Assembly (NCBI GenBank): GCA_014360825.1
Contig: JACIWT010000002.1
Span: forward strand, 14,782 to 78,781
Length of the DNA stretch: 64,000 nucleotides
DNA from: Chloroflexota bacterium
GTDB taxonomy: Bacteria > Chloroflexota > Anaerolineae > UBA2200 > JACIWT01
Direction of reading: 5' to 3'
Positions 25,013 through 40,748 of the stretch are shown piece by piece (positions within the stretch are counted from its first letter, which is position 1; every line of letters starts with the position of its first letter). The notes under the pieces were generated by a model. It was not told where the DNA came from. It saw only the letters and a program-made list of their open reading frames with translations, and ran no database searches. Position numbers and translations under genes: made by a program.

Positions 25013-25053
25013 AGCAGTGGGAGCGAAATATTTCATTTCTCGCTCCCACTGCT
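25013..25053. other. long near-perfect inverted repeat (about 14-17 bp arms) immediately downstream of the fdhA stop; no U-tract
   Basis: AGCAGTGGGAGCGAAAT...ATTTCTCGCTCCCACTGCT. Confidence 0.35.
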
Positions 25054-25059
25054 ATTGTC

Positions 25060-27828
25060 TCATGCCTTCTCGATGCGGACAGCCGCCACCTTATACTCTG
25101 GGATTTTTGACACCGGATCTAGCGCAGCGATAGTCAGCAGGTTCGCTGCGGCTTCACGGAAGTGGAAGGTCATGAACACCACCCCTGGATCCGGTCGGTC
25201 AACCACCTCCGCCTTGGCTACGACTTCGCCACGGCGTGAAGTGACTCGCACTAGATCACCGTCCACAATACCCAATCTCTCGGCATCCCTGGGGTTGATC
25301 TCCACTGTGCCCTCAGGATAGAGCTGGTTCAGGCCGGGGATACGGCGGGTGATGGTACCGCTGTGATAGTGATACAGCACGCGCCCTGTGGTCAGCACGA
25401 GGGGATATTTCTTATCTGGCACTTCCTTCGCTGGTGCCCACTCTACCGCGTGGAACTTGCCCAGTCCGCGTGAGAATTTGCCCACATGCAAAATTGGCGT
25501 GCCCGGATGATCGGGAGCGGGACAAGGCCACTGTAATCCGACCTGCTCAATCCGATCATAGGTGATGCCCCCGTAACTTGGCGTCACAGCGTTGATTTCA
25601 GCCATGATCTCGCGTGGGTGTGTGTAGTCCCAACTGGCGAACTTTGCCTTCGATCTATCTATGCCCAGACGCGCTTCGACTCGCTTGGCTAAATCACAGA
25701 TGATCTGCCAGTCGGGGCGGGCGTTGCCTATGGGCTCGATGGCCTTGCGTACCCGCTGTACACGGCGTTCCGTGTTGGTGAAAGTGCCATCTTTCTCGGC
25801 GAAGGACACCCCAGGCAACACTACGTCGGCCAATTCCGCGGTCTCGCTCATGAAGATTTCCTGTACCACCAGAAAATCCAGACTTTGCAGGCATTTGCGG
25901 ACGTGGTTGATGTCGGGATCGGTCATCATCGGGTTCTCGCCGAGGACGAACAAGGCTTTAATGTCGCCGGCCTCGGCAGCATTGATCATCTCCACGACAG
26001 TGAGGCCAGGCTCTGTAGATGCGGTGCTGCCCCATGCTTCTTTGAACTTGGCTTGTGCTGCTTCATCTGCAACCCTCTGATATCCGGGGTAAAAGTTCGG
26101 CAAGCAGCCCATGTCACAGGCACCTTACACATTGTTTTGGCCGCGCAGGGGGTTCACTCCACCCCCAGGCACCCCCATGTTGCCAAGGAGCATTTGCAAA
26201 TTGGCCGTAGAGAGCACATTCTGGTGCCCTTTGGTGTGTTGGGTGATACCCATAGCGTAGATCAGTGCCCCAGGGCGGTTAACCGCGAGCAGTCGTGCCG
26301 CCTTGCGGACATCATCCGCTGGCACGCCAGTGATCTCTTCCGCATATTCTGGCGTGTACTTCTCCAGAACTGTCTTGAGTTCTTCAAAGCCTTCTGTGCG
26401 GTTGGCTACGAACTCTTTATCGTACAGATCCTCGGCGATCAACACATGCATGATGCCGTTCAGTAGGGCAATATCAGATCCCGGCTTATGCTTAAGGTGA
26501 AGGACGGCGACGTCGGCCAGTGGAATATCGCGTGGATCGGCCAAGATCAACTTGGCTCCGTTACGCGCCGCCTGTCGGAGGCGCATGCCAATCACCGGAT
26601 GTTGCTCCGTGGTGTTAGAACCGATTACCAAATAGGACTTTGCTTGGGTGGTAATATCCTCAATGGAGTTCGTCATAGCACCCGAACCGAACGCGGCGGC
26701 CAGACCGGTCACCGTGGAGGAGTGTCAAAGACGAGCGCAGTGGTCAACGTTGTTCGTCCCCAGCACCGCTCGAGTGAACTTCTGGAGGAGATAATTCTCC
26801 TCGTTGGTGCATTTGGCGGAACTGAGGACGGCGATAGCGTCGCCACCATGCTTTTTCTTAGTCTCTGCGATTTTCTCAGCCACCAGGTCTAGAGCCTCGT
26901 CCCAAGAGGCTTCGACGAACTTCCCGTTTCGTTTGATCAGCGGGGCTACTAACCGATCGGGATGATTCACAAAATCGTAGCCGAACCGGCCCTTCACACA
27001 AGTCCAGCCGTGATTGACAGGAGCATCCCAATAGGACGTTACCCGAATGATTTTGCCGTCCCTTACGTTGAGGTCAAACTGGCAACCGACGCCGCAATAG
27101 CCACAAGTAGTGGTAACCTTTTTCATTTCCCAAGTGCGTCCCAGTCCTTTAGCGCCTTTAGGTGAAAGGGCACCCGTGGGACATACTTCCACACACATGC
27201 CACAGAATTCACAAGGTGAGTCCTCAAGATAGCCATCTTTTGCTGTACCAGGTTTGGCCCGGAAGCCACGATACAGCATTGAAATGGCCTCAACACCGTT
27301 GATGTAACTGCAAGCGCGCACACAGGCCTGGCATACCACACATTTATTGTAGTCTCGCTCAATGAAAGGGTTGGGGTCGCTGATAGGATAGTGATGCTCC
27401 TCACCCCGATAGGGCGACTCTTTGATGCCCAACTCATAGGCGAGATCCTAAAGCGTGCAGTTGCCCGCCTTCTCGCAAGTCATGCAGTCGAGCGGATGGT
27501 CTGAAAGCAATAATTCCAAAACAAAGCGGCGCAGCGCCACGATACCGGGGGTATGCGTCTTAATGCGTATACCTTCTGCCACGGGATAGGTACATGAGGT
27601 CTGAAAGGATGTAACATAGGTGGTCTCAGTGGTCCCATCAGCGTTTTGCTTGACACGAGGAATCCCTACTTCCACCAAACAGAGGCGACACGCTCCAATA
27701 TCAGGCAGAGCAGGATGATGACACAGGGTGGGGATCTTGATTCCCATGGCGGTGGCTGCTTTAAGGATTGTGTTACCCTCTTCCACTTCCACTGCCCGGT
27801 CATCGATTGTGAATCTAATCAGTGGCAT
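25060..27828 (-). pseudogene. fdhA: NAD-type formate dehydrogenase alpha subunit (FdsA/FdhA; NuoG-like 2Fe-2S/4Fe-4S N-domain + molybdopterin domain), selenocysteine at TGA 26727-26725; two further in-frame stops (TAG 27450-27448, TAA 26127-26125) at conserved Gln positions
   Basis: The four track ORFs are contiguous and in one frame. CTL(TAG)DLAYELG aligns to C.LQ; CARL(TGA)HSSTVTGL aligns to FdhF CARV-U-HGPSVAGL; GQNNV(TAA)GACDMG aligns to GQNNVQGACDMG. Confidence 0.75.
26694..26714 (-). promoter_or_regulatory. candidate bacterial SECIS hairpin 11 nt downstream of the fdhA UGA codon
   Basis: mRNA CGGUGACC-GGUCU-GGCCGCCG: 8-bp stem with one mismatch and a GGUCU apical loop containing the G-U typical of fdhF-type SECIS. 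Confidence 0.4.
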
Positions 27829-28318
27829 CGATCTCCTCCCGCTTTGTCAGTTGTAAGATCTGTTCAACCGCTGGTTGCACCAGCGTCTCAGTGGCCGTAG
27901 AAAGGCCACGGTGGAAATCGAACTCGTAACCCCGGATAGACACAATGTGGCCCGTAGGCTTTCGATGGTGGAGTGCATCGAGCAACGCAAGGAGCATCGC
28001 TGGATTCATGTGGTGGGTGAACGCAGACGCGGCATATTCCGGCAGCACGTGCGCGCAATGCAGATCATCCAGGTCTTCGCGGATGTGTGCATCCACGAAG
28101 ACGATTTGATCGTAGTCCACCAGCAGGTCCACCAATTCGGGCGATAATTGCATGAGAAAAACAGAATCTGTCTGAGCGCCGAGTGCTTCTAAGCCCGTTT
28201 CGTCTTCATGCAGAATCTCTTGCCCCAGGCGCTGGCGCAGGCTGTTGATCGCATAGTATGCAACGCCATCATCGGCGCGGTCCAGATTGCCGTAGCCAAT
28301 GACCAGGGAGCGAGGCAT
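27815..28318 (-). CDS. hoxW: [NiFe] hydrogenase maturation endopeptidase (HoxW/HycI-like)
   Basis: IGYGNLDRADDGVA N-term motif and conserved Asp/His metal ligands. Confidence 0.8.
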   Translation of the reverse strand: MPRSLVIGYGNLDRADDGVAYYAINSLRQRLGQEILHEDETGLEALGAQTDSVFLMQLSPELVDLLVDYDQIVFVDAHIREDLDDLHCAHVLPEYAASAFTHHMNPAMLLALLDALHHRKPTGHIVSIRGYEFDFHRGLSTATETLVQPAVEQILQLTKREEIDATD

Positions 28319-28405: not shown

Positions 28406-29833
28406 CTAACGAGCGATGCGATCCAGCACAGTGCCATCGGCTGCCACCAGGGTGATCTCCAGCGGCATTTGGCCGATAGCGTGGGTGGAGCATGAGAGGC
28501 ATGGATCGTAGCAGCGGATCGCTGCTTCCACTCGGTTGAGCATACCTTCGGTGAGTTTCGTGCCGTCCACACAGGCCTTGGCCACCATCCCTGCGGATGT
28601 GTGCATAGCCCAGTTGTTGTTGCCCGTGGCTACGATGAGGTTCACCCTAGTCAATAGGCCGTTCTCGTCGGTGTCATAGTCGTGGAAGAGGGTCCCTCTG
28701 GGGGCCTCGATCACGCCCACTCCGTGGCCAGTTACCTTTGTTCCGGGATAAGCGCGCACGTCGGTGGACATGATATCTGGATCATCCAGCAACTCGCCGA
28801 TGTGCTCCAAAGCGTAGAGAGCTTCGATCAGTCGGGCATAGTGGTAGTACAGGGAGCCCTCCACTGGCTTGCCGTTATTGATTTTCTTGAATTGCCGGAA
28901 TTCTTCATCGGCCAGGGGTGTGCCGATCTTGTCCACAACGTTCAGACGTCCCAATGGGCCCACCCGATATGCTCCTTGTGGCCACCCTAATTTGCGGTAA
29001 TAGGGGAACTTTAGGAAGGACCAGGGTTCCACGTGTTCGGCTACGTACTCTAAGTAGTCGTTTGGCTTGAATTGTGCGAGCAACTTGCCTTGGGCATCCC
29101 TAACGCGGATCTCACCGTCGTAGAGTTGAAGCCCGCCTTCCTTATCCACCAGACCCATGTAGTTAGATGGGAAGGAGGCGAAAGTATTTGCTAGTTCCTT
29201 GTTAGCCTCCAGCCAGCCCTTGGCGATACCAATCGCCTCTTGGACGTAGCTGACCATGGTCTCGCGTTCGGCGGCGATCTCATCGCGGTCCTTTGCACTG
29301 AGTGGCGCGCTTACCCCACCGGGGACGGCGAAGTAAGGATGCACGCGCTTCCGGCCAAGCCGCTCGATGATCTGCTGCCCGTAGCGGCGTAGGTTCACCG
29401 CTTTCAGAGCCAGTTCGGGGTTTGCCTTGATGATTCCAAATACATTCCGGGTAGCCGGATCGGCGTCAAACCCGAAGACTAGATCGGGTGCAGCCAAGTG
29501 GAAGAAATGCATGCAATGCGACTGTACCACTTGACCCATGTGCATCAGTTCCCGCAGCAGTTTGGCCGGACGTGGCGGCTCTACACCGGCCACGCCGTCG
29601 CAGGCTTTGGCTGAGGCCAAATGGTGGCTGACCGGACAGATGCCGCAGATGCGCTGGGTGATTTGCGTCATCTCGAAATATGGGCGGCCTTCGCTAAATT
29701 TCTCCACCCCGCGAAACTCGTCCACGTGGAAGAAAGTCTGCTGTACTTTGCCCTTGTCGTCCAAATGGATCGTGACCCGCGCATGTCCCTCAATGCGCGT
29801 CACTGGTTCGATGGTTATTTTTTGAGCACCCAT
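28406..29833 (-). CDS. hoxH: [NiFe] hydrogenase large subunit, group 3 (HoxH-like)
   Basis: N-terminal RICGICPVSH and C-terminal DPCLSCSTHA (protease cleavage after His). Confidence 0.9.
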   Translation of the reverse strand: MGAQKITIEPVTRIEGHARVTIHLDDKGKVQQTFFHVDEFRGVEKFSEGRPYFEMTQITQRICGICPVSHHLASAKACDGVAGVEPPRPAKLLRELMHMGQVVQSHCMHFFHLAAPDLVFGFDADPATRNVFGIIKANPELALKAVNLRRYGQQIIERLGRKRVHPYFAVPGGVSAPLSAKDRDEIAAERETMVSYVQEAIGIAKGWLEANKELANTFASFPSNYMGLVDKEGGLQLYDGEIRVRDAQGKLLAQFKPNDYLEYVAEHVEPWSFLKFPYYRKLGWPQGAYRVGPLGRLNVVDKIGTPLADEEFRQFKKINNGKPVEGSLYYHYARLIEALYALEHIGELLDDPDIMSTDVRAYPGTKVTGHGVGVIEAPRGTLFHDYDTDENGLLTRVNLIVATGNNNWAMHTSAGMVAKACVDGTKLTEGMLNRVEAAIRCYDPCLSCSTHAIGQMPLEITLVAADGTVLDRIAR

Positions 29834-29845
29834 AGTGTTCTCCTC

Positions 29846-30391
29846 TTAGTCATACTTGAAATGCTCAGGTGGCAGAATCACAGGCATGCGTCCCGCGAGC
29901 AACTCTGAAAGCGCGTAGAAAAGGGCGTCTGCACTGGGTGGGCAACCGGGGATGAAAAGATCCACCTTTACCACCTTATCAACGCCTGTAACTACATCCA
30001 GCGGCATTCCGAGTTCTGGTGAATCGGGAATGACGCCGTCCACAACGCTCTCAGCCTCTAAGTAAGCGCGCTTTAACGCCGCTTCGGTGCCAACCAGATT
30101 GCGCGAGGCGACAATGCCACCAAAGGTAGCGCAGTCACCCACTGCGATGAGGATTTTGCAGCGTTCACGCATTCTCTTGGCCACCTCAACATTGTGCGTG
30201 TTACTGATCGCACCGGTGAGGATGCCAACGGTTACGCCGTCTTCTGGCGGATGCTTTAGGTCTGTGACCGGGCTTGATGTGAATTCCACCGCTTCCAGCA
30301 ACTGGACAATGCGTTCGTCAATGTCCAGTAACGACATGTGACATCCTGCACAGGCGGCTAGCCAATCCGTGGCGACTTTGACTTTTGCCAT
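29846..30391 (-). CDS. hoxY: [NiFe] hydrogenase small subunit, group 3 (HoxY-like)
   Basis: ACAGCHMS proximal-cluster Cys motif, GDCATFGG, IPGCPP. ATG after AAGGAGA (the track ORF extends 6 codons further upstream). Confidence 0.85.
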   Translation of the reverse strand: MAKVKVATDWLAACAGCHMSLLDIDERIVQLLEAVEFTSSPVTDLKHPPEDGVTVGILTGAISNTHNVEVAKRMRERCKILIAVGDCATFGGIVASRNLVGTEAALKRAYLEAESVVDGVIPDSPELGMPLDVVTGVDKVVKVDLFIPGCPPSADALFYALSELLAGRMPVILPPEHFKYD

Positions 30392-30405: not shown

Positions 30406-32187
30406 TCACTCAAGTTCCCGGGCTGCACGAGCCGAGATCTCGTCGAGGGTGCCGAAACTCTTGCCCAGTTTCCCTGCCAGCAGGGAGAGGATCTCCCAGT
30501 CTGGCTTTGCTTCTCCCTTGGGTTCGACTGCCTTATTGACCTGCTGCACACGACCCTCTATGTTCGTCAGGGTGCCTTCTCGCTCTGACCAGATAGCCAT
30601 GGGCAGCACTACGTCTGCCTTCTTGGTCAGGGGCGATTCATAACTAGTCTGCACAACGACAAATGCATTGGGGCCGAATTGTTTGAGCATATCCTTGCCG
30701 TCCCAATCCTGCTCGCCGACGAGGACAAACACTGTTTCGGCGGAGGATGGATCGAACCCGTTGCTCAACCCGAAGGCCGCGGCAGCGTATGTATTCACGC
30801 CGGGTTCAAGCGCGATGAAGACGGCCTTTTCACCCAACTTCCCTAACGCTTTGATGGTCTTATCTGTGATAGCGGGACCATACAGAACCACTGGATGCAC
30901 GGCACGCTCTGCTAGTTCTACAGCCTTATTGACCTCGTCCATCTTCAAGTGCATGGAGGCGAATGGAGCAAGGCCATTGTCCTTGCTGTCCACTATGATC
31001 AGCCGTGCCCCTTTATCGACAGCGCGCTTGACGAGAAAAGAAGCAACCGGCTGGTCTTTAGCGGGATCTGCACTAACCACAAGGATGATATCACTCGTGG
31101 TGACATCTGCGAGTGAGCCTCCTGACTTCTCCGACAACTTCGTTGCAACCCCGTTGAGCAGGCCAATGTTGGTGACCCTCAATTCCTCACGGAACAACTT
31201 GCCCAGTAGGTATAGCGCCTCGTTGGTAGCGTTGGTTGTGGTTAATACGCCCAGATTCTTGCCTTTGGTGCTACGAATTTGCTCGGCAAGTGCTTCCAAG
31301 GCTGTGTCCCAATCCGTCTCCTTTAACTTGCCGTTTTGCCGGAGCAAGGGTTTGGTTACACGCTGGCGCTCATCGTAGAGCGGGTTGAAGCGCCCTGCCT
31401 GGCAAAGTAGCCCTGCGTTCACAGGGGCGTCCCAATCCCCTTCGATGCGCAAGACGTTGCCACCGCGCGTTACGATCTCCATACCGCAGCCGATACTGCA
31501 CTGGCTGCAGACGCTCTTAATGTGCTCCGTCTCGACATCACGCCCCATAAAGGCACTGCGTTTGTCAACCAGAGCGCCGGTGGGACACACTTGCAAACAG
31601 GTGCCGCAAGAGACACAGGACGATTGGCCGAAGGGAACGTTCATATCGGCGTGGATCATGGACTCTGCACCACGTTGCCGTACGCCCAAGGTGTGATTCG
31701 CCACCAGTTCACTGCAGGCGCGCACGCATCGTCTGCATAGAATGCAACGGTTGTGATCCATAAGGAAATAAGCACGTGTCGCATCCACAGGGAACCGCTT
31801 TGTGTAGGTAGGATAAACCCAGTGGTCAACGCCGTAGCGGTACCCCAGAGACTGCAATTCGCAGTCCCCGCTCATCTCACAGTACATGCAGTAGTGGTTT
31901 CGCTCCGAAAAAAGCAGGTCGAGAACGAATTTTCGTGCTTGAACCACCTGTGGGGACTCGGTCTGCACCTCCATTCCCTCTGTAACGGGGAATGTACATG
32001 CCGTCTGCAAAGTGCGTTGTCCCTTGATCTCTACGAGACACATTCGGCAAGCACCGATTGGGGCCAGAGCAGGGTGGTGACAAAGAGTCGGGATGTCAAT
32101 CCCTGCCCCCTGTGCGGCCTCAAGAACGGTGCTGCCGGCCGGCGCACTGACCTTTTGGCCGTTGATTGTGATATTGACCATTGCCAT
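30406..32187 (-). CDS. NuoG-like iron-sulfur subunit (2Fe-2S plant-type + 4Fe-4S clusters + NuoG C-terminal domain, no Mo/Sec site)
   Basis: CHHPALAPIGACRMC, CEMSGDCELQ, CILCRRCVRAC, CVSCGTCLQVCP. The molybdopterin-ligand motif is replaced by NATNEAL. Confidence 0.85.
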   Translation of the reverse strand: MAMVNITINGQKVSAPAGSTVLEAAQGAGIDIPTLCHHPALAPIGACRMCLVEIKGQRTLQTACTFPVTEGMEVQTESPQVVQARKFVLDLLFSERNHYCMYCEMSGDCELQSLGYRYGVDHWVYPTYTKRFPVDATRAYFLMDHNRCILCRRCVRACSELVANHTLGVRQRGAESMIHADMNVPFGQSSCVSCGTCLQVCPTGALVDKRSAFMGRDVETEHIKSVCSQCSIGCGMEIVTRGGNVLRIEGDWDAPVNAGLLCQAGRFNPLYDERQRVTKPLLRQNGKLKETDWDTALEALAEQIRSTKGKNLGVLTTTNATNEALYLLGKLFREELRVTNIGLLNGVATKLSEKSGGSLADVTTSDIILVVSADPAKDQPVASFLVKRAVDKGARLIIVDSKDNGLAPFASMHLKMDEVNKAVELAERAVHPVVLYGPAITDKTIKALGKLGEKAVFIALEPGVNTYAAAAFGLSNGFDPSSAETVFVLVGEQDWDGKDMLKQFGPNAFVVVQTSYESPLTKKADVVLPMAIWSEREGTLTNIEGRVQQVNKAVEPKGEAKPDWEILSLLAGKLGKSFGTLDEISARAARELE

Positions 32188-32299: not shown

Positions 32300-35200
32300 C
32301 TAAAACTCTTCCAGGTCGCAGCGCAGACAGCGCTTGGCTTCCTCACGCGCTATTTCCTCGCTGAATCCCAACTCGATCTCGTGGAAATTCTTGACCCGCT
32401 CCGGCGGTGCCTGAGTTGGCATCTCAGGCCGTTTCGCCTCAGCATACTCTTCGCGGTTATAGGTCAGTTCAACCGTGCGATAGGCCAGCCATTCTTCTTT
32501 GGATTGTGGGTGGCCATCCTGCAAGTATTCATCCACCGCCATGGCCACCTTGTTGCCTTGTGCTACTGCCTCGATCACGGTTGCAGGACCCAGCACCGCG
32601 TCGCCAGCAGCGAAGGCACCCGGCCGCGAGGTATCCAGTTTCCTGCCCACCTTGAACGTGGAATCGCGGTTCACCTCTGGGCTATCACCGTTCAGGCACG
32701 ACAAATCGGGTGACTGCCCAATGGCCGGAATGACGATATCCACGTCCATGACATACCCTGCTCCTTCGATGGGCACTGGCCGGCGTCTCCCGCTCTTGTC
32801 GAATTCGCCCAATTCCTGTGGTTGTAGTTCCAGCCCCGTGACTTTCGTGTCTCCTAAGACGCGGATGGGATTGGTCAGGAAATGGAACTGGACGCCCTCT
32901 TCTTCCGCCTCTCGTACTTCAAGGTCTTGCGCCGGCATCTCCGCCCGTGTGCGGCGGTAGATGATGTGCACTTCGGAGGCGCCCAGACGGAGGGCTGTCC
33001 GCGCAGCATCGATGGCGGAGTTACCCCCGCCAACCACAGCCACGCGTTTGCCTTTCATCTTGGGTGGCTTACCGAGCGCTACATCCTTCAGGAACGCGGT
33101 AGCGTGCATGACCCCGCTCAAGTCTTCGCCAGGCACACCCAGTCGGCGGCTGCTGTGCGCACCGATCGCCAGGATGACCGCGTGATAGCCCATTTTATCA
33201 AATAACTCATCCAAAGTAAAGTCTTTGCCTAACGCCGTGTTCAATACGATCTCCACGCCGGCGCGCTTGATGTGGTCGATCTCGGCGTTGAGCACATCGC
33301 GTGGCAGGCGGTATTCTGGAATGCCTAAAGCCATCCACCCGCCGGCAACGGGTGCTGCTTCGTAGACGGTTACTTTGTAGCCCCATTGTGCCAGGCGCAA
33401 AGCCGCTGTCAGGCCGGCTGGCCCTGCGCCTACGATGGCAACCTTCTCCGTCTTGGCTTCTTCGTTGCGTGGCGGTATCCATGGGTTCATAATCTCATGA
33501 TCTGCCATGAAGCGCTTCAATTGGCGGATGGCTACTGGCTGATCCAGTTCGCCGCGACGGCAGCGCCGCTCGCAGAAGGCTGGACAAATGCGCCCGCAGA
33601 TCAGGGCAAATGGGTTGCGCTGGCGATGTACTTCGAGCCCTTCGGCGTATTTGCCCTGGCTGATCAGGGCCACATAACTGGGGACATCCACGCCTGCAGG
33701 GCAGGCATTGGTGCACGGTGCTCTGACCAGCGCTTTGCACACCCCGGCCGGACAGCGCTTGTCTAAGATATGTGCCTCGAACTCCTCGCGGAAATAGCGC
33801 AACGCGGCTTTTACCGGACCTGGGGTGAGTTGGCCCAGCGCGCACAACGAAGCCGATTCCATGCCCTGTGCGATTTGTTGGATGGTGTCCAGGTCCTGCA
33901 TCGTTCCTTTGCCTTCCGTGATGCGAGTCAGCACTTCCAACAGGCGCTTACCGCCAACTCGGCAGGGCACACATTTGCCACAGGATTCGGCCGTAGCAAA
34001 GTCCAGGAAGAATTTGGCGAACTCGACCATGCAGGTAGTCTCATCTACCACGATCATGCCGCCGGAACCCATCACTGCGCCCACTTCCTTGAGCGAGTCA
34101 AAATCTACTGGCACATTGAGCGCTTCGACGCCCAGGCAGCCGCCCAATGGGCCACCGGTCTGCACGGCCTTGAATTTCTTGCCGTCGGGGACTCCCCCAC
34201 CGATGTCAAAGATGATTTCGCCCAACGTGATGCCCATCGGCACCTCGACCAAGCCGGTGTTATTGATCTTGCCCGTTAAGGCAAAGATGGCTGTTCCGGT
34301 GCTGCGCGGTGTGCCGATGCTGCTGAACCAATCTGCACCTTTGAGGATGATTTGCGGTACATTGGCGTAACTCTTGACGTTGTTGATATTGCTGGGCTTA
34401 CCCCACAGGCCGGAGACAGCGGGGAAGGGTGGCCTGGGGCGAGGCTCACCACGGCGACCCTCAATGGATGCCATCAGGGCCGTTTCCTCTCCGCAGACGA
34501 AAGCGCCGGCGCCCTCTTTCAGTGTCAGGTGGAAAGTATGTCCGCTTCCCAAGATGTTTTCGCCCAGCAATCCGTATTCGTGGCACTGCTCAATCGCCAT
34601 CTTGATGCGCTTAATGGCCAGAGGATACTCGGCACGGCAATAAATGTAGCCCTGATGCGCACCGATGGCATAACTGGCAATGATCATCCCCTCAATGACA
34701 CTGTGGGGGTCTCCCTCCAGTATGCTGCGGTCCATAAATGCACCGGGGTCCCCTTCGTCCGCGTTGCAAATGAGGTACTTCGGCTCGCCTCGTGCTTTGC
34801 GGCAGAACTCCCATTTCAGACCGGTGAGGAAGCCTGCCCCGCCGCGCCCGCGTAAGCCAGACCGTTTGACCTCCTCAATAACTTGGTCTGGGGTCATCTC
34901 CGATAGCGCCTTGCTCAGCGCGGCATAGCCGTCTCGGGCGATGTACTCATCAATGCTTTCGGGGTTGATCAGTCCACAGTTGCGCAGTGTGATGCGCAAC
35001 TGCTTCCCGTAGAAGGGTATGTCCTTGTAGAAGGGTACCGATTGGTGGGAGAATGGCTCTTTGTAAGTGAGGCGGGGGACGACCCTGCCCTTCACCAGCG
35101 TTTCTTCTACGAGGTGTGGTACATCCGAGGCTTGCACCTGGCAGTAGAAAATACCCTCTGGGTAAATGATCATAACGGGGCCCATCGCACAGAAGCCACG

Positions 35201-35350
35201 GCAGCCGGTTTGCACCAGTCGTACCTCGCCATCCAGCCCACGGCGTTTGATCTCCTCGGCTAAGGCCTCGAAAACCGCCGGGGATTTCGATGCTGTACAG
35301 CCCGTGCCGCCACAGACGAGCACGTTGGCTCTATATAAAGGTTCCGCCAT
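32300..35350 (-). CDS. triple-fusion flavoprotein: NuoE-like [2Fe-2S] + NuoF-like (NADH/FMN/[4Fe-4S]) + GltD/NfnB-like FAD/NAD(P)H pyridine-nucleotide oxidoreductase
   Basis: CGGTGCTASKS..CRGFCAMGP; GRGGAGFLTGLKW; CGEETALMASIEGRRGEPR; ESCGKCVPCRVG; two 4Fe-4S Cys motifs; VAIVGAGPAGLTAA and VAVVGGGNSAIDAA Rossmann motifs. ATG after GAGGA (the track ORF extends 23 codons further upstream). Confidence 0.85.
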   Translation of the reverse strand: MAEPLYRANVLVCGGTGCTASKSPAVFEALAEEIKRRGLDGEVRLVQTGCRGFCAMGPVMIIYPEGIFYCQVQASDVPHLVEETLVKGRVVPRLTYKEPFSHQSVPFYKDIPFYGKQLRITLRNCGLINPESIDEYIARDGYAALSKALSEMTPDQVIEEVKRSGLRGRGGAGFLTGLKWEFCRKARGEPKYLICNADEGDPGAFMDRSILEGDPHSVIEGMIIASYAIGAHQGYIYCRAEYPLAIKRIKMAIEQCHEYGLLGENILGSGHTFHLTLKEGAGAFVCGEETALMASIEGRRGEPRPRPPFPAVSGLWGKPSNINNVKSYANVPQIILKGADWFSSIGTPRSTGTAIFALTGKINNTGLVEVPMGITLGEIIFDIGGGVPDGKKFKAVQTGGPLGGCLGVEALNVPVDFDSLKEVGAVMGSGGMIVVDETTCMVEFAKFFLDFATAESCGKCVPCRVGGKRLLEVLTRITEGKGTMQDLDTIQQIAQGMESASLCALGQLTPGPVKAALRYFREEFEAHILDKRCPAGVCKALVRAPCTNACPAGVDVPSYVALISQGKYAEGLEVHRQRNPFALICGRICPAFCERRCRRGELDQPVAIRQLKRFMADHEIMNPWIPPRNEEAKTEKVAIVGAGPAGLTAALRLAQWGYKVTVYEAAPVAGGWMALGIPEYRLPRDVLNAEIDHIKRAGVEIVLNTALGKDFTLDELFDKMGYHAVILAIGAHSSRRLGVPGEDLSGVMHATAFLKDVALGKPPKMKGKRVAVVGGGNSAIDAARTALRLGASEVHIIYRRTRAEMPAQDLEVREAEEEGVQFHFLTNPIRVLGDTKVTGLELQPQELGEFDKSGRRRPVPIEGAGYVMDVDIVIPAIGQSPDLSCLNGDSPEVNRDSTFKVGRKLDTSRPGAFAAGDAVLGPATVIEAVAQGNKVAMAVDEYLQDGHPQSKEEWLAYRTVELTYNREEYAEAKRPEMPTQAPPERVKNFHEIELGFSEEIAREEAKRCLRCDLEEF

Positions 35351-35382
35351 TGAGATCCTCCTCGGGATACGAAGATATTTTT

Positions 35383-35763
35383 CTATTGTTCGCTGGTGGG
35401 CAGCCGACCTACTACCCACTCTTGCACTACATTGCCTTTGATTAAATGCTCCTCAATGAGCCGGGGCACCATATCTGGTTTGACGTTTCCGTACGTGATG
35501 CGTGGCTTGCCTGCCTGTTCGATATCCACCAACGGTTCTTTGACGCACATGCCAATGCATCCGACGGTGGTGACGTGGGCTTCGATCTCACGCTTCTTGA
35601 GTTCCTCAAGGATGGCGTGCATCGTCTCACGTGCTCCGGCAGCGATGCCGCAGGTGCCCATGCCGACGGTGATCTTGGTGCCTGTCTCCAGCCGTACCTT
35701 GAGGTCTTTTTGTGCTTCTTCGCGCAGTTTCTTTAGATCTTCTAAGGTCTTCAGTCTCGGCAT
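35383..35763 (-). CDS. thioredoxin-like [2Fe-2S] ferredoxin (HydC/NuoE-like small subunit)
   Basis: Cys motif GMGTCGIAAG ... VGCIGMCV. Confidence 0.7.
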   Translation of the reverse strand: MPRLKTLEDLKKLREEAQKDLKVRLETGTKITVGMGTCGIAAGARETMHAILEELKKREIEAHVTTVGCIGMCVKEPLVDIEQAGKPRITYGNVKPDMVPRLIEEHLIKGNVVQEWVVGRLPTSEQ

Positions 35764-35805
35764 TGAACAGCCTCCTCTGTGGATATATTTTCCGCAGCGA
35801 ATTGG

Positions 35806-36357
35806 TTATGGCCTGGGCCTATGCAGGCTCGCCAGCCCCTCAGCCAGCGTGGATTCCAGCCACTGCCTTATCAGTGGATGCGAGAGGGGCACTGTGCCCA
35901 ATTCGCGGCGCACTTCTGCTGTGTCCAGTTCAAACGTCCGACCATCCACAACGTGCTTGTAGCGGATGTCTACTGCCTGTTCCGAGAGAACCACTGCCAT
36001 TATGCTTGTGACGATATCGCCCAGCGGTGCGCGGTCAATGTGACTGTGTTGGAAAGTAGCCGTTACCTTCGTTCCTACCCCGGGCTTGGATTGTACCTGG
36101 AGATTGCCATTGCACTGTTGGGCTGCTGCCGCGAAGAGCGGCAATCCCAGACCGACGTGCCTGGTGGTACGTGTGGTAACGAAGGGGTCTAATACCCTCT
36201 GGGCGAACTCCTCATCCATGCCGCGCCCATTGTCTTGAATTGTGATCTTTAGGATATCGTTCTTCGTGTCCTCCTCGATGAGCAACTCAATGCGAGTTGC
36301 TCCCGCCTCCACCGAATTTTCCAGTGCATCGAGGATATGTAGGGAAAGTTCGCGCAC
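35806..36357 (-). CDS. histidine-kinase-like ATPase (HATPase_c only) protein
   Basis: N-box/G-box-like ITIQDNGRGMD ... HVGLGLPL with no HisKA domain. Confidence 0.7.
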   Translation of the reverse strand: MRELSLHILDALENSVEAGATRIELLIEEDTKNDILKITIQDNGRGMDEEFAQRVLDPFVTTRTTRHVGLGLPLFAAAAQQCNGNLQVQSKPGVGTKVTATFQHSHIDRAPLGDIVTSIMAVVLSEQAVDIRYKHVVDGRTFELDTAEVRRELGTVPLSHPLIRQWLESTLAEGLASLHRPRP

Positions 36358-36825
36358 TTAATGCAAATCTCTCACGATTTCGGTCATTCTTTCAGGGACC
36401 AGGTGTCCAACGACTTCGTTGTCCACCATCGCCGTAGGGGCCAGACCGCAAGATCCCAAACAGTAAACGACTTCATATGTTACCCGATAATCCGGCGTCG
36501 TTTCTCCGGCCTTAATGCCCAAGTCGTTTTCGACAGTCCTGATGATTTTGGCCGCGCCACGCACGTGGCAAGCGGTGCCGTCGCATTGACGGATGATGTG
36601 TTTGCCGCGCCTGGTCAGGTAGAATTGGGCATAGAAAGTTACCACGCCATACACCTGGCTCAATGGTACTCTCATGCGCTCAGAAATACGTTTCAGTACC
36701 TCGGCCGGCAGGTACCCGTAGATTTCTTGCGCCCGTTGCAACACGGGGATTACCGCTCCCTTCTGCGTTTGGAACTCTTCGAATATTGGCTCCAAACGAC
36801 TGAGGTCCAAGGTTTCTTCAGCCAC
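36358..36825 (-). CDS. NuoE/HydC-like thioredoxin-like [2Fe-2S] subunit (second copy)
   Basis: CDGTACHVRGA ... CLGSCGLAPTAMV. Confidence 0.85.
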   Translation of the reverse strand: MAEETLDLSRLEPIFEEFQTQKGAVIPVLQRAQEIYGYLPAEVLKRISERMRVPLSQVYGVVTFYAQFYLTRRGKHIIRQCDGTACHVRGAAKIIRTVENDLGIKAGETTPDYRVTYEVVYCLGSCGLAPTAMVDNEVVGHLVPERMTEIVRDLH

Positions 36826-36845
36826 CTTGCCATATCCTCCTTGAT

Positions 36846-37616
36846 CTAATGTGAATTGGCGAGTACTTTTACTTTTCGACCATTCTGACGGCGAAAGGCC
36901 ATCGAGATCTCCGTGAGGGTGGGCTCCTCAAGGGTAAATATGGTCCTGTCGCTTATCTCACTCAGACGGTGTGCATCGCCAGAACAGATGAACGAATGTG
37001 CCGCGAGTGATGGGTGTCGGCGCTGTATCTCCTCCACGCTGGTGTTACGCGTTATCTCCATAGCGGCGAAATGAACACCCGGTGGGACGAACCCCAGGTT
37101 CGCCAATAGACTGTAAGACGGACGATCTATATGTGCTGCGATGCAGAGCCCTTTCCGTTCCTCGACGCCTGAAACCACCTCTTCCACGGAGAGGGAAGTG
37201 GAGGTTGCCAGCAGCCTATCATTGTAACGGACAAAATCACCTGTGGCGTCCACTACAAACTGCGGGCCAAAAACTTCTGCCTTGTTTTTCAACATGGGCA
37301 GGTGAGCATATATCACTGCTTGCCAATCCAGCGCCCGCTCCACGGTATCAAAAAGACAAAGCAGATGAACCTCTTCTTTAGTTTGGACTTCCATACCTGG
37401 CAACACAGTCAGATCGAGTCCACACGCAGCCTCGATAACCGAGGCGACATTCTCTGCCGAGTTGTGATCGGTGATCGCAATGATGCCAAGGGCCAGTTCC
37501 CGTGCTTGCCGAACGATCAGAGGCGGTATCATTTCCACCTCGGCGCAAGCGGATAAAACTGTGTGCACATGCAGATCGGCTAGATAAGGTCTCAAGGCTC
37601 GTGTGTCATGCTCCAA
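36846..37616 (-). CDS. PHP-domain (polymerase/histidinol phosphatase-like) metal-dependent phosphoesterase
   Basis: LADLHVHTVLS ... ITDHNS His/Asp metal-ligand motifs. Confidence 0.8.
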   Translation of the reverse strand: MEHDTRALRPYLADLHVHTVLSACAEVEMIPPLIVRQARELALGIIAITDHNSAENVASVIEAACGLDLTVLPGMEVQTKEEVHLLCLFDTVERALDWQAVIYAHLPMLKNKAEVFGPQFVVDATGDFVRYNDRLLATSTSLSVEEVVSGVEERKGLCIAAHIDRPSYSLLANLGFVPPGVHFAAMEITRNTSVEEIQRRHPSLAAHSFICSGDAHRLSEISDRTIFTLEEPTLTEISMAFRRQNGRKVKVLANSH

Positions 37617-37639
37617 CTCTCATATATTTGCCCACAGGT

Positions 37640-37984
37640 CTATTCTGTGCCTTGGATTCCCAACCGGCTCAATTGGCCCACAATGGTGAACGTTGTGCGC
37701 GGCGTGGTAAGTATAGGGATCCCCTGCTCATTTGCCTTCTGCAATGTAGCGGCATCCGGAGATACCCCTTCGGTCACAATAATACCGGCTAGTTCGAGGA
37801 GTGCAGCCACAGCGACGATGTTGACATGCGACTGCAGGGTGACCCATACATTGCCCTTGCGCGCCTTGGCCATGACACAACTGAGCAGGTCAGAGGCATA
37901 CCCACCTGTTACCTCTGTGTCCAAGTTCTCACTCGCCGTCTGCACGGAAAGAGACAGCGCCTTTGCGATTTCACCTATTGTCAT
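37640..37984 (-). CDS. DRTGG-domain protein
   Basis: DRTGG-like Rossmann segment ...GNVWVTLQSHVNIVAVAALLELAGIIVTEG. Confidence 0.65.
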   Translation of the reverse strand: MTIGEIAKALSLSVQTASENLDTEVTGGYASDLLSCVMAKARKGNVWVTLQSHVNIVAVAALLELAGIIVTEGVSPDAATLQKANEQGIPILTTPRTTFTIVGQLSRLGIQGTE

Positions 37985-38009
37985 CGTGTTCCCTCGTGGT
38001 TACACAGCA

Positions 38010-38960
38010 TCACAGATTGATCAGGATCTCCAGGCGGGTTCCCACCCCAACTTTTGATTCCAGATGCATCTCGTCCGCACAGGCCTGGATGTTGTTTAAC
38101 CCCATCCCTGCGCCAAAGCCCAGTTCGCGGATCCAATCCGGGGCAGTAGAATAGCCCGGCTGCAGTGCTTTCTCGATGTCGGGGATGCCGGGGCCACTAT
38201 CCACCGCGACGATCCTGATCCTTTCTGGCTGGATTTCGGCGATGAGTTCCCCGCCTTTGGTGGTGTGAAGGACCAGGTTCGTCTCCGCCTCATAACTGGC
38301 CACGGCGATGCGACGCACTACAGCGGGCTTCGCTCCCAGTCGTTCCAAGGCGCGCTTTAACTTGCTGGCAGCCTCTCCACAGCCCACAAAGTCTAAAGGC
38401 TTTACCTTGTAGCGCAAAATCAGGCCGGTCTGGTCAGATGTGATGTCCTCAAAAATGTGGCTGGCCCGATAGCGATGGATTTCCTCTTCGTGATAATCAA
38501 CTTCCAATTGGCGAAGTAAGCCACGCGCGATATCTCCCTGCGTCACTATACCAACCAACTTTCCGTGCCGATTGACTACGGGGAGCCGTCCGAAACCGAA
38601 GCGAGCGAATTTATTCAGTGCCTGGACGACGGACTCATCAGCAAACACCGTTTGCACTTCAGTGCTCATTTTCTCGCCGACGGTAGCGTCTATATCGCCA
38701 GATTCGAGGGCTTTTATCAGGTCTTCGATGCTGATGATGCCAACTAGTTCGCCATCTCGCAGCACTGGGGTACCTGAAATGCGGTTGACCCGGAGCACCT
38801 CCTTCAACTGACGCATCGAATCGTCGGGAGATACGGTGATGACTTTCTTCGTCATGACCTGCTCAATCTTCAGTTCATATACCAGTTCTTGGAGCTTGGT
38901 TACTTCTCGGCTTGACTCGGTTGTTAACGTGCTTCTTGGTTCTTGACTGTTCGTGACCAC
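38010..38960 (-). CDS. CBS-pair + GHKL/HATPase-like (anti-sigma/Ser-kinase-like) protein
   Basis: Two CBS motifs (VITVSPDDSM..., GRLPVVNRHGKLVGIVTQGDI). C-terminal ATPase-like GxGxG region GFGAGMGLNNI. Confidence 0.7.
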   Translation of the reverse strand: MVTNSQEPRSTLTTESSREVTKLQELVYELKIEQVMTKKVITVSPDDSMRQLKEVLRVNRISGTPVLRDGELVGIISIEDLIKALESGDIDATVGEKMSTEVQTVFADESVVQALNKFARFGFGRLPVVNRHGKLVGIVTQGDIARGLLRQLEVDYHEEEIHRYRASHIFEDITSDQTGLILRYKVKPLDFVGCGEAASKLKRALERLGAKPAVVRRIAVASYEAETNLVLHTTKGGELIAEIQPERIRIVAVDSGPGIPDIEKALQPGYSTAPDWIRELGFGAGMGLNNIQACADEMHLESKVGVGTRLEILINL

Positions 38961-39020
38961 TGTCGTGAGCTCATTCTCTTGCCCAGGGACTAAGGTGATT
39001 CCGATTCGATGAACGATGGG

Positions 39021-39422
39021 CTACATGCCGCATGACGAAGGAGGATCATCGAGCCAGGTGCCTGCCGTCAACGGGAACAAACCACAACTTGGGAGTCCGG
39101 CCTGGTATAGTCGGCCACAGGTTTCGTACATCGTGTACTTGGAAGCGAGCAGTGGAATACCCTTCTCTTTGGCCAAAGCGATGGTCTCTGCAGGGGGCAA
39201 TTTGCCGCGCACGAAAACGATGGCCACGATGCCCGCCATTTCGGCGGTGCGCACAACCTGCGGGTTAGTCAAGCCGGTCATGAGCAAGGTGCCGGCATGG
39301 GTAAAAGCCAGGACGTCACTCATTAGGTCGGCACCACAGGCCATTTTCGCCTCGATGGAGAGATCAATCTCTGGCCAAAGTACCTTACCTTCGATGATTT
39401 GCAAAACCTCTCGTAAGGTCAT
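39021..39422 (-). CDS. DRTGG-domain protein (second copy)
   Basis: Paralogous to 37640-37984 (GADLMSDVLAF...GIVAIVFVRG). Confidence 0.65.
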   Translation of the reverse strand: MTLREVLQIIEGKVLWPEIDLSIEAKMACGADLMSDVLAFTHAGTLLMTGLTNPQVVRTAEMAGIVAIVFVRGKLPPAETIALAKEKGIPLLASKYTMYETCGRLYQAGLPSCGLFPLTAGTWLDDPPSSCGM

Positions 39423-39661
39423 GACATCGATTCACTTTGAAGCCGATCACGGCATCGCCAAACAGCCACAAGGGGCCTTGCGAACCATTCGTCTGCGGAG
39501 ACTTACAGGTGATGGAGGGAAGAATCCTGTAGCAGGTTCTAGACCCCTTGCCCGCTTGAGCAACCCCTCACTGCCCACAACCCCGTGCGTGCAGGCGGTT
39601 CCCGATGGCAATCTCTATTGTCCATTTCGAAAGGGTATGATAACTTTTACAAAGCGGCAGG

Positions 39662-39690
39662 ATATTATCATATTTTGGTATCCTTGTCAA
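39662..39690 (-). promoter_or_regulatory. sigma70-like promoter TTGACA -17- TAATAT for the regulatory-module/hydrogenase operon
   Basis: Minus strand: -35 at 39690-39685, -10 at 39667-39662. AT-rich surroundings; ~230-nt leader to the first gene. Confidence 0.4.
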
Positions 39691-39751
39691 ATATTTTGTG
39701 CGCGGCTAAAAAGTGCCGCGGGCGGCAGAACCAGCCAGCGGAAGGATCCCG

Positions 39752-40717
39752 TTACTCTACGCATTCCTGCATCCAACCGTGTTCCAGGCCAACGTCTAAG
39801 GCAATCTCCACAGCCTCTTCATACTCTTCTGGCGTGATCTTTCGACCCAGCACCGGGTCGCCAACTGCCTTGTGGGCCGGGAAATACTGGTCCATGAGGC
39901 TGATGTGCACTCGGGGCGATAGTTCCTCCGCGATCCAGCGCAACACTTCACCTGTCCCGGCCAGTCTCTCGGGCAGCACCATGTGGCGGATGATCATCCC
40001 TCGCTGGGCGATGCCGTCGCTATCCACGACCAACTCCTCGCCCACCTGCCGGAACAGTTCCTTTAGTGCGGCGCGGTTGGCGGCTACGTAGCCTTTGAAG
40101 CGCGAGAGACGGTGGGCAATAGCATCGCTGGCGTACTTAGCATCAGGCAAATAGATGTCTATAACGTTTTCTAATAAGCGCAGGGTCTCGACACTCTCGT
40201 AGCCGCTGGAATTGTAAACCAAAGGGAGGGAGAAGCCTCGTGGCACAGCGTAGAGTAGCGCAGCCAGGATCGCCGGTACGAAATGAGTGGGCGTTACGAA
40301 ATTGATGTTATGGCAGCCGCGCTTCTGTAGTTCGAGCATCATCTCCGCCAAGCGCTCGACGGTGACCTGCTGACCGACGCCCAGCTGGCTAATGGGGTAG
40401 TTCTGACAGAACAGGCAACGCGCGGTACAGCCGGTGAAGAAAATCGTGCCCGAACCTCGTGTGCCGCTAATTGGCGGCTCTTCCCAAGGATGGACGTTCC
40501 AGGAAGCGACTACGGGCTCGGCTCCCATGCGACAGAAACCATGTTGGCCGGCCAGCCGATTCACGCCACAATCGCGGGGACAGAGATCGCAAGCAGACAA
40601 CCGTTCGCGTGCGATCCGAGCCCGTTCTGCCAATTCCCCTGTTCTCGCGAGGGCCAAGTAACTTGGCCGCCATTCACGGCTCCCCAGGGTTAACGTATCG
40701 AACCCCTTTCGTCGCAA
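39752..40717 (-). CDS. radical SAM enzyme, AmmeMemoRadiSam-system / PflA-like family
   Basis: CTARCLFCQN (CX3CX2C) cluster motif. N-terminal extra Cys pair CDLCPRDC. Family-level similarity only. Confidence 0.75.
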   Translation of the reverse strand: MRRKGFDTLTLGSREWRPSYLALARTGELAERARIARERLSACDLCPRDCGVNRLAGQHGFCRMGAEPVVASWNVHPWEEPPISGTRGSGTIFFTGCTARCLFCQNYPISQLGVGQQVTVERLAEMMLELQKRGCHNINFVTPTHFVPAILAALLYAVPRGFSLPLVYNSSGYESVETLRLLENVIDIYLPDAKYASDAIAHRLSRFKGYVAANRAALKELFRQVGEELVVDSDGIAQRGMIIRHMVLPERLAGTGEVLRWIAEELSPRVHISLMDQYFPAHKAVGDPVLGRKITPEEYEEAVEIALDVGLEHGWMQECVE

Positions 40718-40748
40718 TCATTTCTTCTTACAGCGAGGACTATCCAGT

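Follow-up and report, generated by a model that had tools for sequence, protein, structure and literature searches.

A candidate sensory and regulatory cassette of DRTGG, GHKL and PHP proteins linked to Bfu-type electron-bifurcating enzymes

In fermenters, syntrophs and acetogens, enzymes of the Bfu/HydABC type determine the balance of NAD(P)H, ferredoxin and H2 or formate. The closest described relatives of the gene set reported here are the HydS neighbourhoods upstream of HydABC in Bacillota (TTE0887-0894, Athe_1292-1299 and Cthe_0335-0342), in which the same flanking genes follow the same order, i.e., DRTGG, SpoIIAB-class GHKL, DRTGG, PHP, NuoE, small GHKL ATPase, HydD and HydB (PMC3561251, PMC4694547). 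HydS of group D is regarded as a sensor (PMC8163306, PMC13104023); TTE0887, Athe_1292, Cthe_0335 and others have been listed as M2e sensors, T. maritima has been listed with a PAS-type (M2f) sensor, and a 'histidine/serine kinase' between the sensory and the bifurcating hydrogenases has been mentioned (PMC3561251). A study from 2026 calls the interaction partners of group D HydS unknown and their identification critical (PMC13104023), and the conserved genes flanking HydS are obvious candidates for such partners. We analysed a stretch of 64,000 nucleotides (nt) from a Chloroflexota bacterium of the class Anaerolineae (contig JACIWT010000002.1; hereafter the window), where a set of this kind occupies positions 35806-39422 of the minus strand at the head of a hydrogenase operon. 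In contrast to the Bacillota HydS loci, the window has no HydS, a CBS pair sits on the GHKL protein, the enzyme is of the [NiFe] type and HydB carries a GltD-like fusion. The initial annotation of the window held that the set has no established function, and the searchable literature indeed contains no characterisation of it; the Bacillota neighbourhoods are equally uncharacterised (PMC13104023). We propose that the five non-redox genes of the set in the window form a sensory and regulatory cassette, embedded in the operon and dedicated to flavin-based electron-bifurcating enzymes of the Bfu (HydABC-like) type, a reading drawn from sequence comparison to which we assign a probability of roughly 45%.

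On the side of the enzyme, the best solved relative of the large subunit and of HydB is NiFe-HydABCSL of Acetomicrobium mobile (7T2R/7T30), which also matches HydC. The A. mobile operon holds in addition a HisK-like gene, hydD and hydP, and neither HisK nor HydD belongs to the purified holoenzyme (PMC8880783, PMC9304861); in the published accounts, compared by description only, no upstream DRTGG/GHKL/PHP set is described. The window differs from A. mobile in an extra NADP(H)-type module on HydB and in the formate dehydrogenase and FocA genes that follow. On the side of regulation, the nearest functional analogue with genetic support is the group C HydS/HfsB system of R. albus and of Thermoanaerobacterium (hfsABCD), in which a PAS-type sensory [FeFe] hydrogenase stands beside a Ser/Thr kinase or phosphatase and genetics supports a regulatory role (PMC5707799, PMC11837493). 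The likeness lies in a sensory hydrogenase coupled to Ser/Thr phospho-signalling beside the genes of its presumed target hydrogenase. Compared with the PAS and PP2C-type parts of group C, the cassette has no PAS and no clear PP2C domain but contains DRTGG, PHP and a second GHKL ATPase, and in the window a CBS pair replaces the hydrogenase sensor.

Pfam and NCBIfam bore out all six ORFs of the initially annotated set, with their domains and with their coordinates on the minus strand. In the order of that strand these are DRTGG1 (39021..39422), a protein with two CBS domains and a GHKL domain (CBS-GHKL, 38010..38960), DRTGG2 (37640..37984), a PHP metallophosphoesterase (36846..37616), NuoE (36358..36825) and a small GHKL ATPase (35806..36357). 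Three independent public assemblies of Chloroflexota/Anaerolineae origin contain the identical genes in the same arrangement. NuoE, a [2Fe-2S] subunit of 155 amino acids (aa) that matches Pfam 2Fe-2S_thioredx over its full length (E 4.6e-49), had been described as an extra copy, but it is actually the only full-length NuoE/HoxE of the operon. Its closest solved relatives are the HydC subunits of bifurcating hydrogenases (8A6T_C, E 5e-46; NiFe-HydC 7T2R_C, E 1e-43); because of these matches and its being the sole copy, we assign it as the structural HydC/BfuC and place it outside the regulatory cassette. The remaining five non-redox genes, encoding DRTGG1, CBS-GHKL, DRTGG2, PHP and the small ATPase, form one cassette.

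This cassette is of ancient origin and wide distribution. In a scan of one genome per species, a relative of the PHP protein turned up in at least 587 genomes, and gene neighbourhoods were compared in the best 80 loci, the ORFs of which were searched with the proteins of the window. The loci come from more than 12 phyla, namely Chloroflexota, Bacillota, Acidobacteriota, Desulfobacterota/Syntrophia, Ignavibacteriota, Armatimonadota, KSB1, WOR-3, Aminicenantes, Planctomycetota, Nitrospirota, Actinomycetes and others. The order DRTGG1-GHKL-(HydS)-DRTGG2-PHP-ATPase is nearly invariant among them and lies on one strand; recurring in 80 loci of different species, it is far beyond chance. A HydB-type NuoF stands beside the cassette in 55 of the 64 informative loci. 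The catalytic partner varies: besides [FeFe] HydA there are [NiFe] modules of the A. mobile type, [NiFe] modules accompanied by MvhD and Hdr-like subunits, and loci that lack a hydrogenase altogether. Where at least 9 kb could be followed downstream (47 loci), the partner was [FeFe] in 11, [NiFe] in 8, [NiFe] with MvhD in 7 and another or none in 21. Since the catalytic partner changes in this way, the cassette is tied to the NuoE/HydD/NuoF (BfuBC) core and not to a class of hydrogenase. The initial annotation had seen the set as known from [FeFe] hydrogenase neighbourhoods of Firmicutes and Thermotogae and as attached here to a [NiFe] operon, and had proposed to compare its co-occurrence with hydrogenase types. 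A recurrent hydrogenase-linked set and its position upstream of the [NiFe] operon are confirmed by this comparison, in which [FeFe], [NiFe], Mvh/Hdr-linked and non-hydrogenase partners all occur. The special link to a hydrogenase type gives way to a link with the NuoE/NuoF core, and no Thermotogota are among the 80 best loci. With [NiFe] partners in 15 of the 47 loci, the [NiFe] attachment in the window is therefore not exceptional. Two points are new: the cassette accompanies the flavoprotein core irrespective of whether the enzyme is of the [FeFe], [NiFe], Hdr-linked or non-hydrogenase kind, and the window provides a CBS-sensor variant of a neighbourhood that had been noticed before only in the surroundings of [FeFe] enzymes.

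Within the cassette the pair of PHP and small ATPase varies least; DRTGG2 ranks next, then DRTGG1 and GHKL, and then the sensor. Natural fusions join DRTGG1 to GHKL in a Thermoanaerobacterium and in a metagenome-assembled genome (MAG) of the Thermosediminibacteraceae (loci L028 and L037 of our comparison), DRTGG2 to PHP in P0196 (47% identical over 111 aa) and PHP to the small ATPase in L023, L029, L073, P0125 and P0201. The fusions suggest two arms, an input arm of sensor, GHKL and DRTGG1 and an output arm of DRTGG2, PHP and ATPase.

Individual loci depart from the common surroundings. The full HydS-type cassette of Orenia (L025) has rnfCD behind it, and the cassette of L044 has rubrerythrin. 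Three MAGs of Clostridia/Peptococcia (L042, L054, L061) carry DRTGG1, DRTGG2, PHP and the small ATPase, lacking GHKL, directly behind rex; these reduced cassettes adjoin maf-radC-mreBCD, with no Bfu genes nearby.

The strongest argument for a sensory and regulatory cassette comes from the interchange of two kinds of sensor. In many loci a gene of about 450 aa stands between GHKL and DRTGG2 and encodes a group D (M2e) putative sensory [FeFe] hydrogenase, HydS, with two clusters of the ferredoxin type, an H-cluster domain and, at its C-terminus, a PF04060 FeS motif; some of the HydS/H-cluster sequences carry the TSCSPGW variant. The GHKL protein of HydS loci has only about 145 aa, and wherever it carries the N-terminal CBS pair, as in the window, HydS is missing. 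Among the 58 loci with the whole stretch from DRTGG1 to PHP, 19 are of the CBS type, 29 have HydS, 10 have neither and none has both (Fisher p 4e-8, phylogeny ignored); the HydS calls include four added by tblastn, i.e., three intact copies and one interrupted copy (L034). In a PHP tree built by neighbour joining, the CBS state appears at no fewer than six separate places among HydS-type neighbours, with a minimum of nine changes of state. The window itself yielded no HydS-like sequence to tblastn with a HydS representative. Our reading is that the CBS pair and HydS are putative alternative inputs to the same transmitter.

Sensor and enzyme can be combined in further ways. HydS lies inside cassettes that head Mvh/Hdr-linked [NiFe] hydrogenases in eight loci (L026, L027, L045, L059, L065, L069, L070, L082), a combination that would couple an [FeFe] sensor to a [NiFe] enzyme. 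In three MAGs of Deltaproteobacteria/Smithella (L040, L058, L062) there is neither HydS nor a CBS pair, and DRTGG1 is present in two tandem copies.

The CBS-GHKL protein (316 aa) is proposed as the sensor-transmitter of the window, as predicted from its domains. Its CBS pair (Pfam CBS x2, E 8.6e-31) is fused to a GHKL domain of the SpoIIAB/RsbW class (HATPase_c_2, E 7e-8), for which the top NCBIfam match is the anti-sigma F factor SpoIIAB (spIIAB, E 5e-13). In the PDB the protein matches anti-sigma F factor (1TID/1L0O, E 1e-5), and the CBS part matches solved CBS pairs, e.g., MJ1225 (E 7e-15). The ATP-binding motifs E224/E226-N228, D254-G256-x-G258 and G281-F-G-A-G-M-G-L288 are invariant among 26 homologues. 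CBS domains bind ribose-phosphate through the motif G-h-h-S/T-x-x-D/N, which reads G137-I-V-T140-Q-G-D143 in CBS2, with G137 and T140 invariant and D143 conserved in at least 90%, and G74-I-I-S77-I-E-D in CBS1, with G74 invariant and S77 conserved in at least 90%. Public gene calls place the start at a later codon, while the full 316-aa form is the one conserved in homologues. The linker between the CBS pair and GHKL (residues 159-184, EEIHRYRASHIFEDIxSDQTGLILRY) is almost invariant in homologues of the CBS type, above the level of the CBS domains themselves.

Both DRTGG proteins stand alone. DRTGG1 (133 aa; Pfam DRTGG, E 4e-8) and DRTGG2 (114 aa; DRTGG, E 1.5e-8; Hpr_kinase_N, E 1e-5) are paralogues (27% identity, E 1e-12), each with its own strongly conserved acidic motif after the eponymous glycine-rich turn. 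The conserved motifs are DLMSDVLAF, LLLTGLxNxQ and FVRGKxP in DRTGG1 (62 sequences), and EVTGGYxSDLLSDVMA and NIVAVA in DRTGG2. In the literature on DRTGG we found nothing that connects it with this cassette. The combination of a CBS pair with DRTGG is shared with the CBS-DRTGG insert of family II pyrophosphatases and with CBS adaptors such as AcuB, and the insert is an enzyme regulator responsive to adenine nucleotides and Ap4A (bioRxiv 10.1101/2020.04.07.028951; PMC13039410). In sequence, the CBS part of the CBS-GHKL protein matches structures of this group (3L2B, 9S4W). There the domains lie within one enzyme or in a single adaptor, whereas the cassette spreads them over three proteins and adds GHKL and PHP.

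A GHKL protein of the SpoIIAB/RsbW class recalls the SpoIIAB/SpoIIAA/SpoIIE and RsbW/RsbV/RsbU modules, in which a small ATP-binding protein of the same HATPase_c_2 class is likewise flanked by small partners. The initial annotation had accordingly favoured a nucleotide- or redox-sensing partner switch or phosphorelay. The sensory and regulatory part of that idea fits the comparative data, with the CBS pair in the slot of HydS, but the elements that define a partner switch or a phosphorelay are missing. Unlike the SpoIIAB/RsbW modules, the cassette has no STAS antagonist, no sigma factor and no clear PP2C, and its flanking partners are DRTGG proteins. We searched the cassette proteins and the recurrent neighbour families identified through Pfam or by inspection of their sequences for STAS, sigma factor, receiver, HTH, DHp and HPt and found none of them. 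A receiver domain was likewise missing from the scanned operon proteins and the upstream radical-SAM gene, a PP2C phosphatase (SpoIIE/RsbU type) from the window, and a sigma factor gene from the operon, no sigma-factor-directed search of the 64-kb window having been made. A classical switch acting on operon transcription via a sigma factor or response regulator could further draw on rex upstream of the cassette in six Bacillota loci, on the AraC gene that flanks TamHydS (PMC8163306) and on a weakly SpoIIE-like gene in eight Chloroflexota loci. Against this, the cassette shares its transcript with its would-be target genes, neither a Rex box nor a rex gene was found in the 64-kb window, and the SpoIIE match stays below the threshold and is seen in only three of the eight members. 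Such control of transcription is the least probable of the explanations we weighed.

The only match to a Rex operator in the window with at most three mismatches lies at 40776 inside uvrB, a chance-level count, and a Rex operator was rejected for this locus. The weakly SpoIIE-like gene is a conserved gene of about 390 aa that follows PHP in a subgroup of Chloroflexota (L010, L011, L013-L016, L019, L020), with a best E of 5.6e-4 to SpoIIE/PP2C.

The PHP protein (256 aa; Pfam PHP, E 1.3e-8) belongs to a distinct stand-alone family of about 250 aa with 414 clusters at 50% identity (E<=1e-30) and is predicted to be catalytically intact. Across 59 diverse sequences the nine metal ligands (H16, H18, C24, H51, E76, H84, H162, D214, H216) are fully or almost fully conserved, and in the trinuclear metal site C24 stands for the third histidine. 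The AlphaFold2 (AF2) model is confident (pLDDT 95.3), and its top Foldseek match is Endonuclease Q (EndoQ, 5ZB8; E 2e-12, TM-score 0.73 on the query and only 0.48 on the target), followed by nucleotide phosphoesterases of the TrpH/RNase AM type, TM0559 and polymerase PHP domains. A profile of the 59 members likewise finds EndoQ first in the PDB (E 4e-17), covering only EndoQ residues 4-233 of 400. EndoQ (COG1379; 5ZB8, 7K30) is thus the closest solved relative by fold and by profile, and the protein has an EndoQ-like core. It is nevertheless only 17% identical to EndoQ, it stops at 256 aa and so lacks the Zn ribbon and the C-terminal helical DNA-binding domain, and its context is a redox operon and not DNA repair.

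This ancestry raises the question of a nucleic-acid-directed effector, in which PHP and a MutL-like ATPase would cleave RNA or DNA, e.g., their own transcript, in a post-transcriptional control governed by HydS or the CBS pair. EndoQ, RNase AM/TrpH and the PHP exonuclease domains of polymerases are the closest solved relatives of PHP; the ATPase matches the folds of MutL, PMS2, GyrB and Topo VI-B, which partner with nucleic-acid enzymes; and the two proteins are fused in several genomes. The absent Zn ribbon and DNA-binding domain speak against such an effector, as do the Pfam search, in which no cassette protein showed a nucleic-acid-binding domain, and the leader of the operon, which is neither conserved nor structured. 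A strict linkage to redox enzymes would also be unexpected for a nuclease, and we consider this explanation very unlikely.

Public gene calls often start PHP at Met29 (226-230 aa) and thereby lose the invariant metal-binding motif DLHxHTxLSPC; Pfam scores PHP weakly or not at all in such calls. The longer form, starting at TTG 37616, is the version conserved across phyla. A role in anti-phage defence was rejected: PADLOC gave a single weak match to the PHP domain (E 1e-5 over 80 aa), and the linkage to redox genes argues against it.

The small ATPase (183 aa), of the 'HisK'/TTE0891 type, consists of HATPase_c only (E 2e-17). Its N, G1, F and G2 boxes are conserved (N14, D42-x-G44-x-G46, DPF, G69-L-G71), its first helix begins at residue 4, and the AF2 model (pLDDT 88.5) combines a Bergerat fold with an alpha/beta extension of 80 residues, lacking a helical hairpin. 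Pfam found no HisKA or other DHp family, and we conclude from sequence and model that this is not a canonical histidine kinase. A permuted histidine kinase was rejected as well, as the conserved motif SHIDRxPLGD after the CA domain forms a loop in the model and not the H-box of a helical DHp. Over its full length the protein matches MutL better than kinases, and Foldseek agrees on this order with close E-values; the full-length fold matches are MutL, PMS2, GyrB and Topo VI-B. The matches to MutL span about 140 of the 330 residues of MutL LN40, and the 183-aa ATPase is without the transducer domain and the N-terminal strap. The Bergerat core is 30% identical to branched-chain ketoacid dehydrogenase kinase over about 106 aa (Foldseek E 4e-6).

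PHP-family protein phosphatases exist, namely CpsB and YwqE. Together with the kinase-like core of the ATPase they could speak for covalent on/off control of the PDK/BCK or AceK kind, with the small GHKL protein as a Ser/Thr kinase for HydB, HydC or HydD, PHP as the opposing phosphatase and the CBS-GHKL/DRTGG arm setting the balance. The PHP-ATPase fusions resemble bifunctional kinase/phosphatases, and the ATPase gene is tightly coupled to hydC. A CpsB/YwqE-type tyrosine phosphatase is disfavoured for PHP, however, since these enzymes match its fold poorly (E 0.1, probability 0.54) whereas EndoQ and TrpH match it strongly. The full-length ATPase is nearer to MutL than to kinases, and we found no phosphoproteomic report of HydB or HydC phosphorylation in the literature. 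We regard covalent control as quite unlikely.

The position of the ATPase gene bears on another explanation. The stop codon of hydC and the GTG start of the small ATPase adjoin without a gap (TAAGTG), which, with the absence of HisK from the purified A. mobile enzyme, we count in favour of a regulatory cassette. The same abutment, and the statement that PHP and the ATPase always lie beside NuoE/HydD/NuoF, would suit a set for the assembly, maturation or repair of the flavin/FeS core, with the ATPase as an ATP-driven chaperone or clamp. PHP would then process a nucleotide cofactor or clear an inhibitory nucleotide at the FMN/NAD(H) site of HydB, acting e.g. on FAD to give FMN, on ADP-ribose or on damaged NAD(P)H, and DRTGG, CBS and GHKL would tune this to supply. 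PHP and the ATPase, the least variable pair, are sometimes fused, nucleotide hydrolysis is known for the PHP relatives TrpH and Cv1693, the cassette has no linked DNA-binding output, and the A. mobile authors themselves allow for 'maturation and/or regulation' (PMC8880783). In Ca. subterraneus, however, hydC-tte0891-hydD-hydB-hydA gave an active enzyme in E. coli lacking the upstream genes for DRTGG1, GHKL, HydS, DRTGG2 and PHP (PMC4694547), which argues against an obligatory maturation role of those genes. The cassette is missing from published lists of T. maritima hydrogenase genes (PMC3561251) and is thus not a universal requirement; in some loci no Bfu gene lies near it, and it contains a dedicated sensor (HydS or CBS) and a SpoIIAB-class GHKL. 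A maturation set is thus an unlikely explanation, the most serious of the rivals.

If the cassette is regulatory, as we propose, the signal would pass from the CBS pair to GHKL, on to the DRTGG pair, the PHP/ATPase arm and finally the Bfu core. In arm A, the input, the ATP-binding GHKL of the SpoIIAB/RsbW class, with its presumed kinase activity, would work with DRTGG1, and the CBS pair would read an adenosine-containing ligand, which we infer to be the adenylate charge, possibly NAD(H) or Ap4A. In other lineages the H2-sensing group D HydS fills the slot of the CBS pair. Arm B, the output, would consist of DRTGG2, the EndoQ-like PHP metallophosphoesterase acting on its putative substrate and the small MutL/HK-like ATPase. 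The DRTGG paralogues probably connect the two arms, through a pairing that we infer because DRTGG dimerises in CBS-pyrophosphatases. The likely target is the HydB/HydC flavoprotein core, which would be controlled post-translationally.

Several points weigh against this proposal. Every step of the mechanism is a prediction from genes and comparison, and the statistic for the exclusion of CBS and HydS carries no correction for phylogeny. The target may be something other than the Bfu core, as some cassettes lie away from any Bfu gene. The small ATPase is not firmly assignable to kinases or to MutL-like ATPases, and the PHP relatives act on nucleic acids or nucleotides, so that a kinase/phosphatase pair is not obvious. 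No STAS, sigma factor, receiver or DNA-binding domain was found linked to the cassette. The E. coli construct included TTE0891 and is therefore silent on the need for the small ATPase.

More tentatively, the loci may represent a so far unrecognised signalling architecture common to many phyla, in which a SpoIIAB-class transmitter and an effector of EndoQ-like phosphodiesterase and mini-MutL ATPase, joined by two DRTGG adaptors, would directly gate Bfu enzymes with interchangeable sensors (HydS for H2; CBS for adenylate or redox nucleotides); we hold this general form to be possible but doubtful. If true, the cassette proteins would be the long-sought interaction partners of group D sensory hydrogenases, and electron bifurcation would be under dedicated post-translational control. 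The vague notion of a kinase next to a sensor becomes a testable architecture of two arms, DRTGG bridging and interchangeable sensors, and its confirmation would provide a handle for engineering H2 and ethanol yields.

The genes behind the cassette belong with it to a single tightly packed series on the minus strand, from 39422 to 24041 by ORF reading, with intergenic gaps of 0-60 nt. By its sequence the operon is assigned to a Bfu-type NiFe-HydABCSL hydrogenase with a HydB fused to a GltD/NfnB-like module, as HydA-like, HydB, HydC and the [NiFe] small and large subunits are encoded together and chains B, C and D of 7T2R rank first or nearly first among the solved matches. Next to the small ATPase lies a HydD-like, small thioredoxin-like [2Fe-2S] ferredoxin (35383..35763, minus strand; partial Pfam 2Fe-2S_thioredx, E 3.9e-5), which is conserved beside NuoE/NuoF in most loci; in Ca. 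subterraneus HydD co-purifies with the enzyme (PMC4694547), whereas in A. mobile it does not (PMC9304861). HydB/BfuB (32300..35350, minus strand; Pfam, PDB) is a NuoF-type FMN subunit with an N-terminal [2Fe-2S] domain, starting in public gene calls at Met24. Its residues 28-567 match 7T2R_B (E 1e-257), and its fused NAD(P)H-FAD module (residues 565-1036) matches NfnA (9N5U_A) and Stn (8OH5_C). The HydA-like/NuoG-like FeS subunit BfuA (30406..32187, minus strand) has no H-cluster and matches Pfam Fer2_4, NADH-G_4Fe-4S_3, Fer4 and Molybdopterin, and NCBIfam NuoG and HoxU. It is followed on the same strand by the [NiFe] small subunit (29846..30391; PF01058 Oxidored_q6 in the public gene call) and the large subunit of the NiFe-HydABCSL type (28406..29833; 7T2R_D over full length, E 6e-174; Pfam HoxH and NiFeSe_Hases in the public call). 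A maturation endopeptidase-like gene (27815..28318, minus strand) is so named because it comes after the large subunit and by comparison with related loci: its homologues follow the large subunit in L008, and a separate family of about 170 aa (U7) takes the same position in six other loci. The predicted type is an electron-bifurcating hydrogenase with NAD(P)+ and ferredoxin.

Upstream of the cassette, a promoter with a leader of about 230 nt had been annotated at about 39690-39662, and a sigma-70-like site is indeed present there (39662..39690, minus strand; TTGACA, 17 nt, TAATAT, with an upstream TG; 10 of 12 consensus positions). It is the best-scoring site within 35300-40000, follows a terminator-like hairpin, and is a plausible operon promoter as judged from its sequence. 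The number of such sites in the region, five, is no excess over the 3.5 +/- 1.9 of shuffled controls, and the site is not conserved in other cassette loci. The hairpin (39714..39727, minus strand), a match to consensus only, has a stem of five pairs, four of them G-C, followed by CTTTTTAG; lying 3' of the upstream radical-SAM gene, it is likely the end of the preceding transcription unit. The leader (39423..39661, minus strand) is unremarkable. It contains no recognisable regulatory RNA, as the scan of 35000-40800 gave no Rfam match at E<=1; its folding is no better than that of shuffles (z -1.22), and the upstream regions of related loci are unrelated to it. A riboswitch or structured leader was rejected on these grounds. 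In several related loci hdr-like genes directly precede the first cassette gene. The radical-SAM gene immediately upstream in the window (39752-40717, same strand), weakly AmmeMemoRadiSam/PflA-like, was rejected as a member because it accompanies the cassette only in the closest relatives (L001-L003) and is probably unrelated.

At its far end the operon continues past the hydrogenase with a formate dehydrogenase and then a FocA-type channel (24041-27828). The HydB-GltD/NfnB-like fusion resembles the Stn and NfnABC enzymes, and together with formate dehydrogenase and FocA it hints at a putative NADP-linked hydrogenase/formate dehydrogenase complex. The alpha subunit of formate dehydrogenase (25060-27828, minus strand) is a single frame of 922 codons with three in-frame stops. 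TGA at 26725-26727 lies at the canonical selenocysteine site (CARL-U-H), while TAG at 27448-27450 and TAA at 26125-26127 stand where a conserved glutamine is expected (C-T-L-Q-D and N-N-V-Q-G). The independent assembly L001 calls an identical first ORF of 126 residues, ended by the TAG, and the gene may be a recent pseudogene or something stranger.

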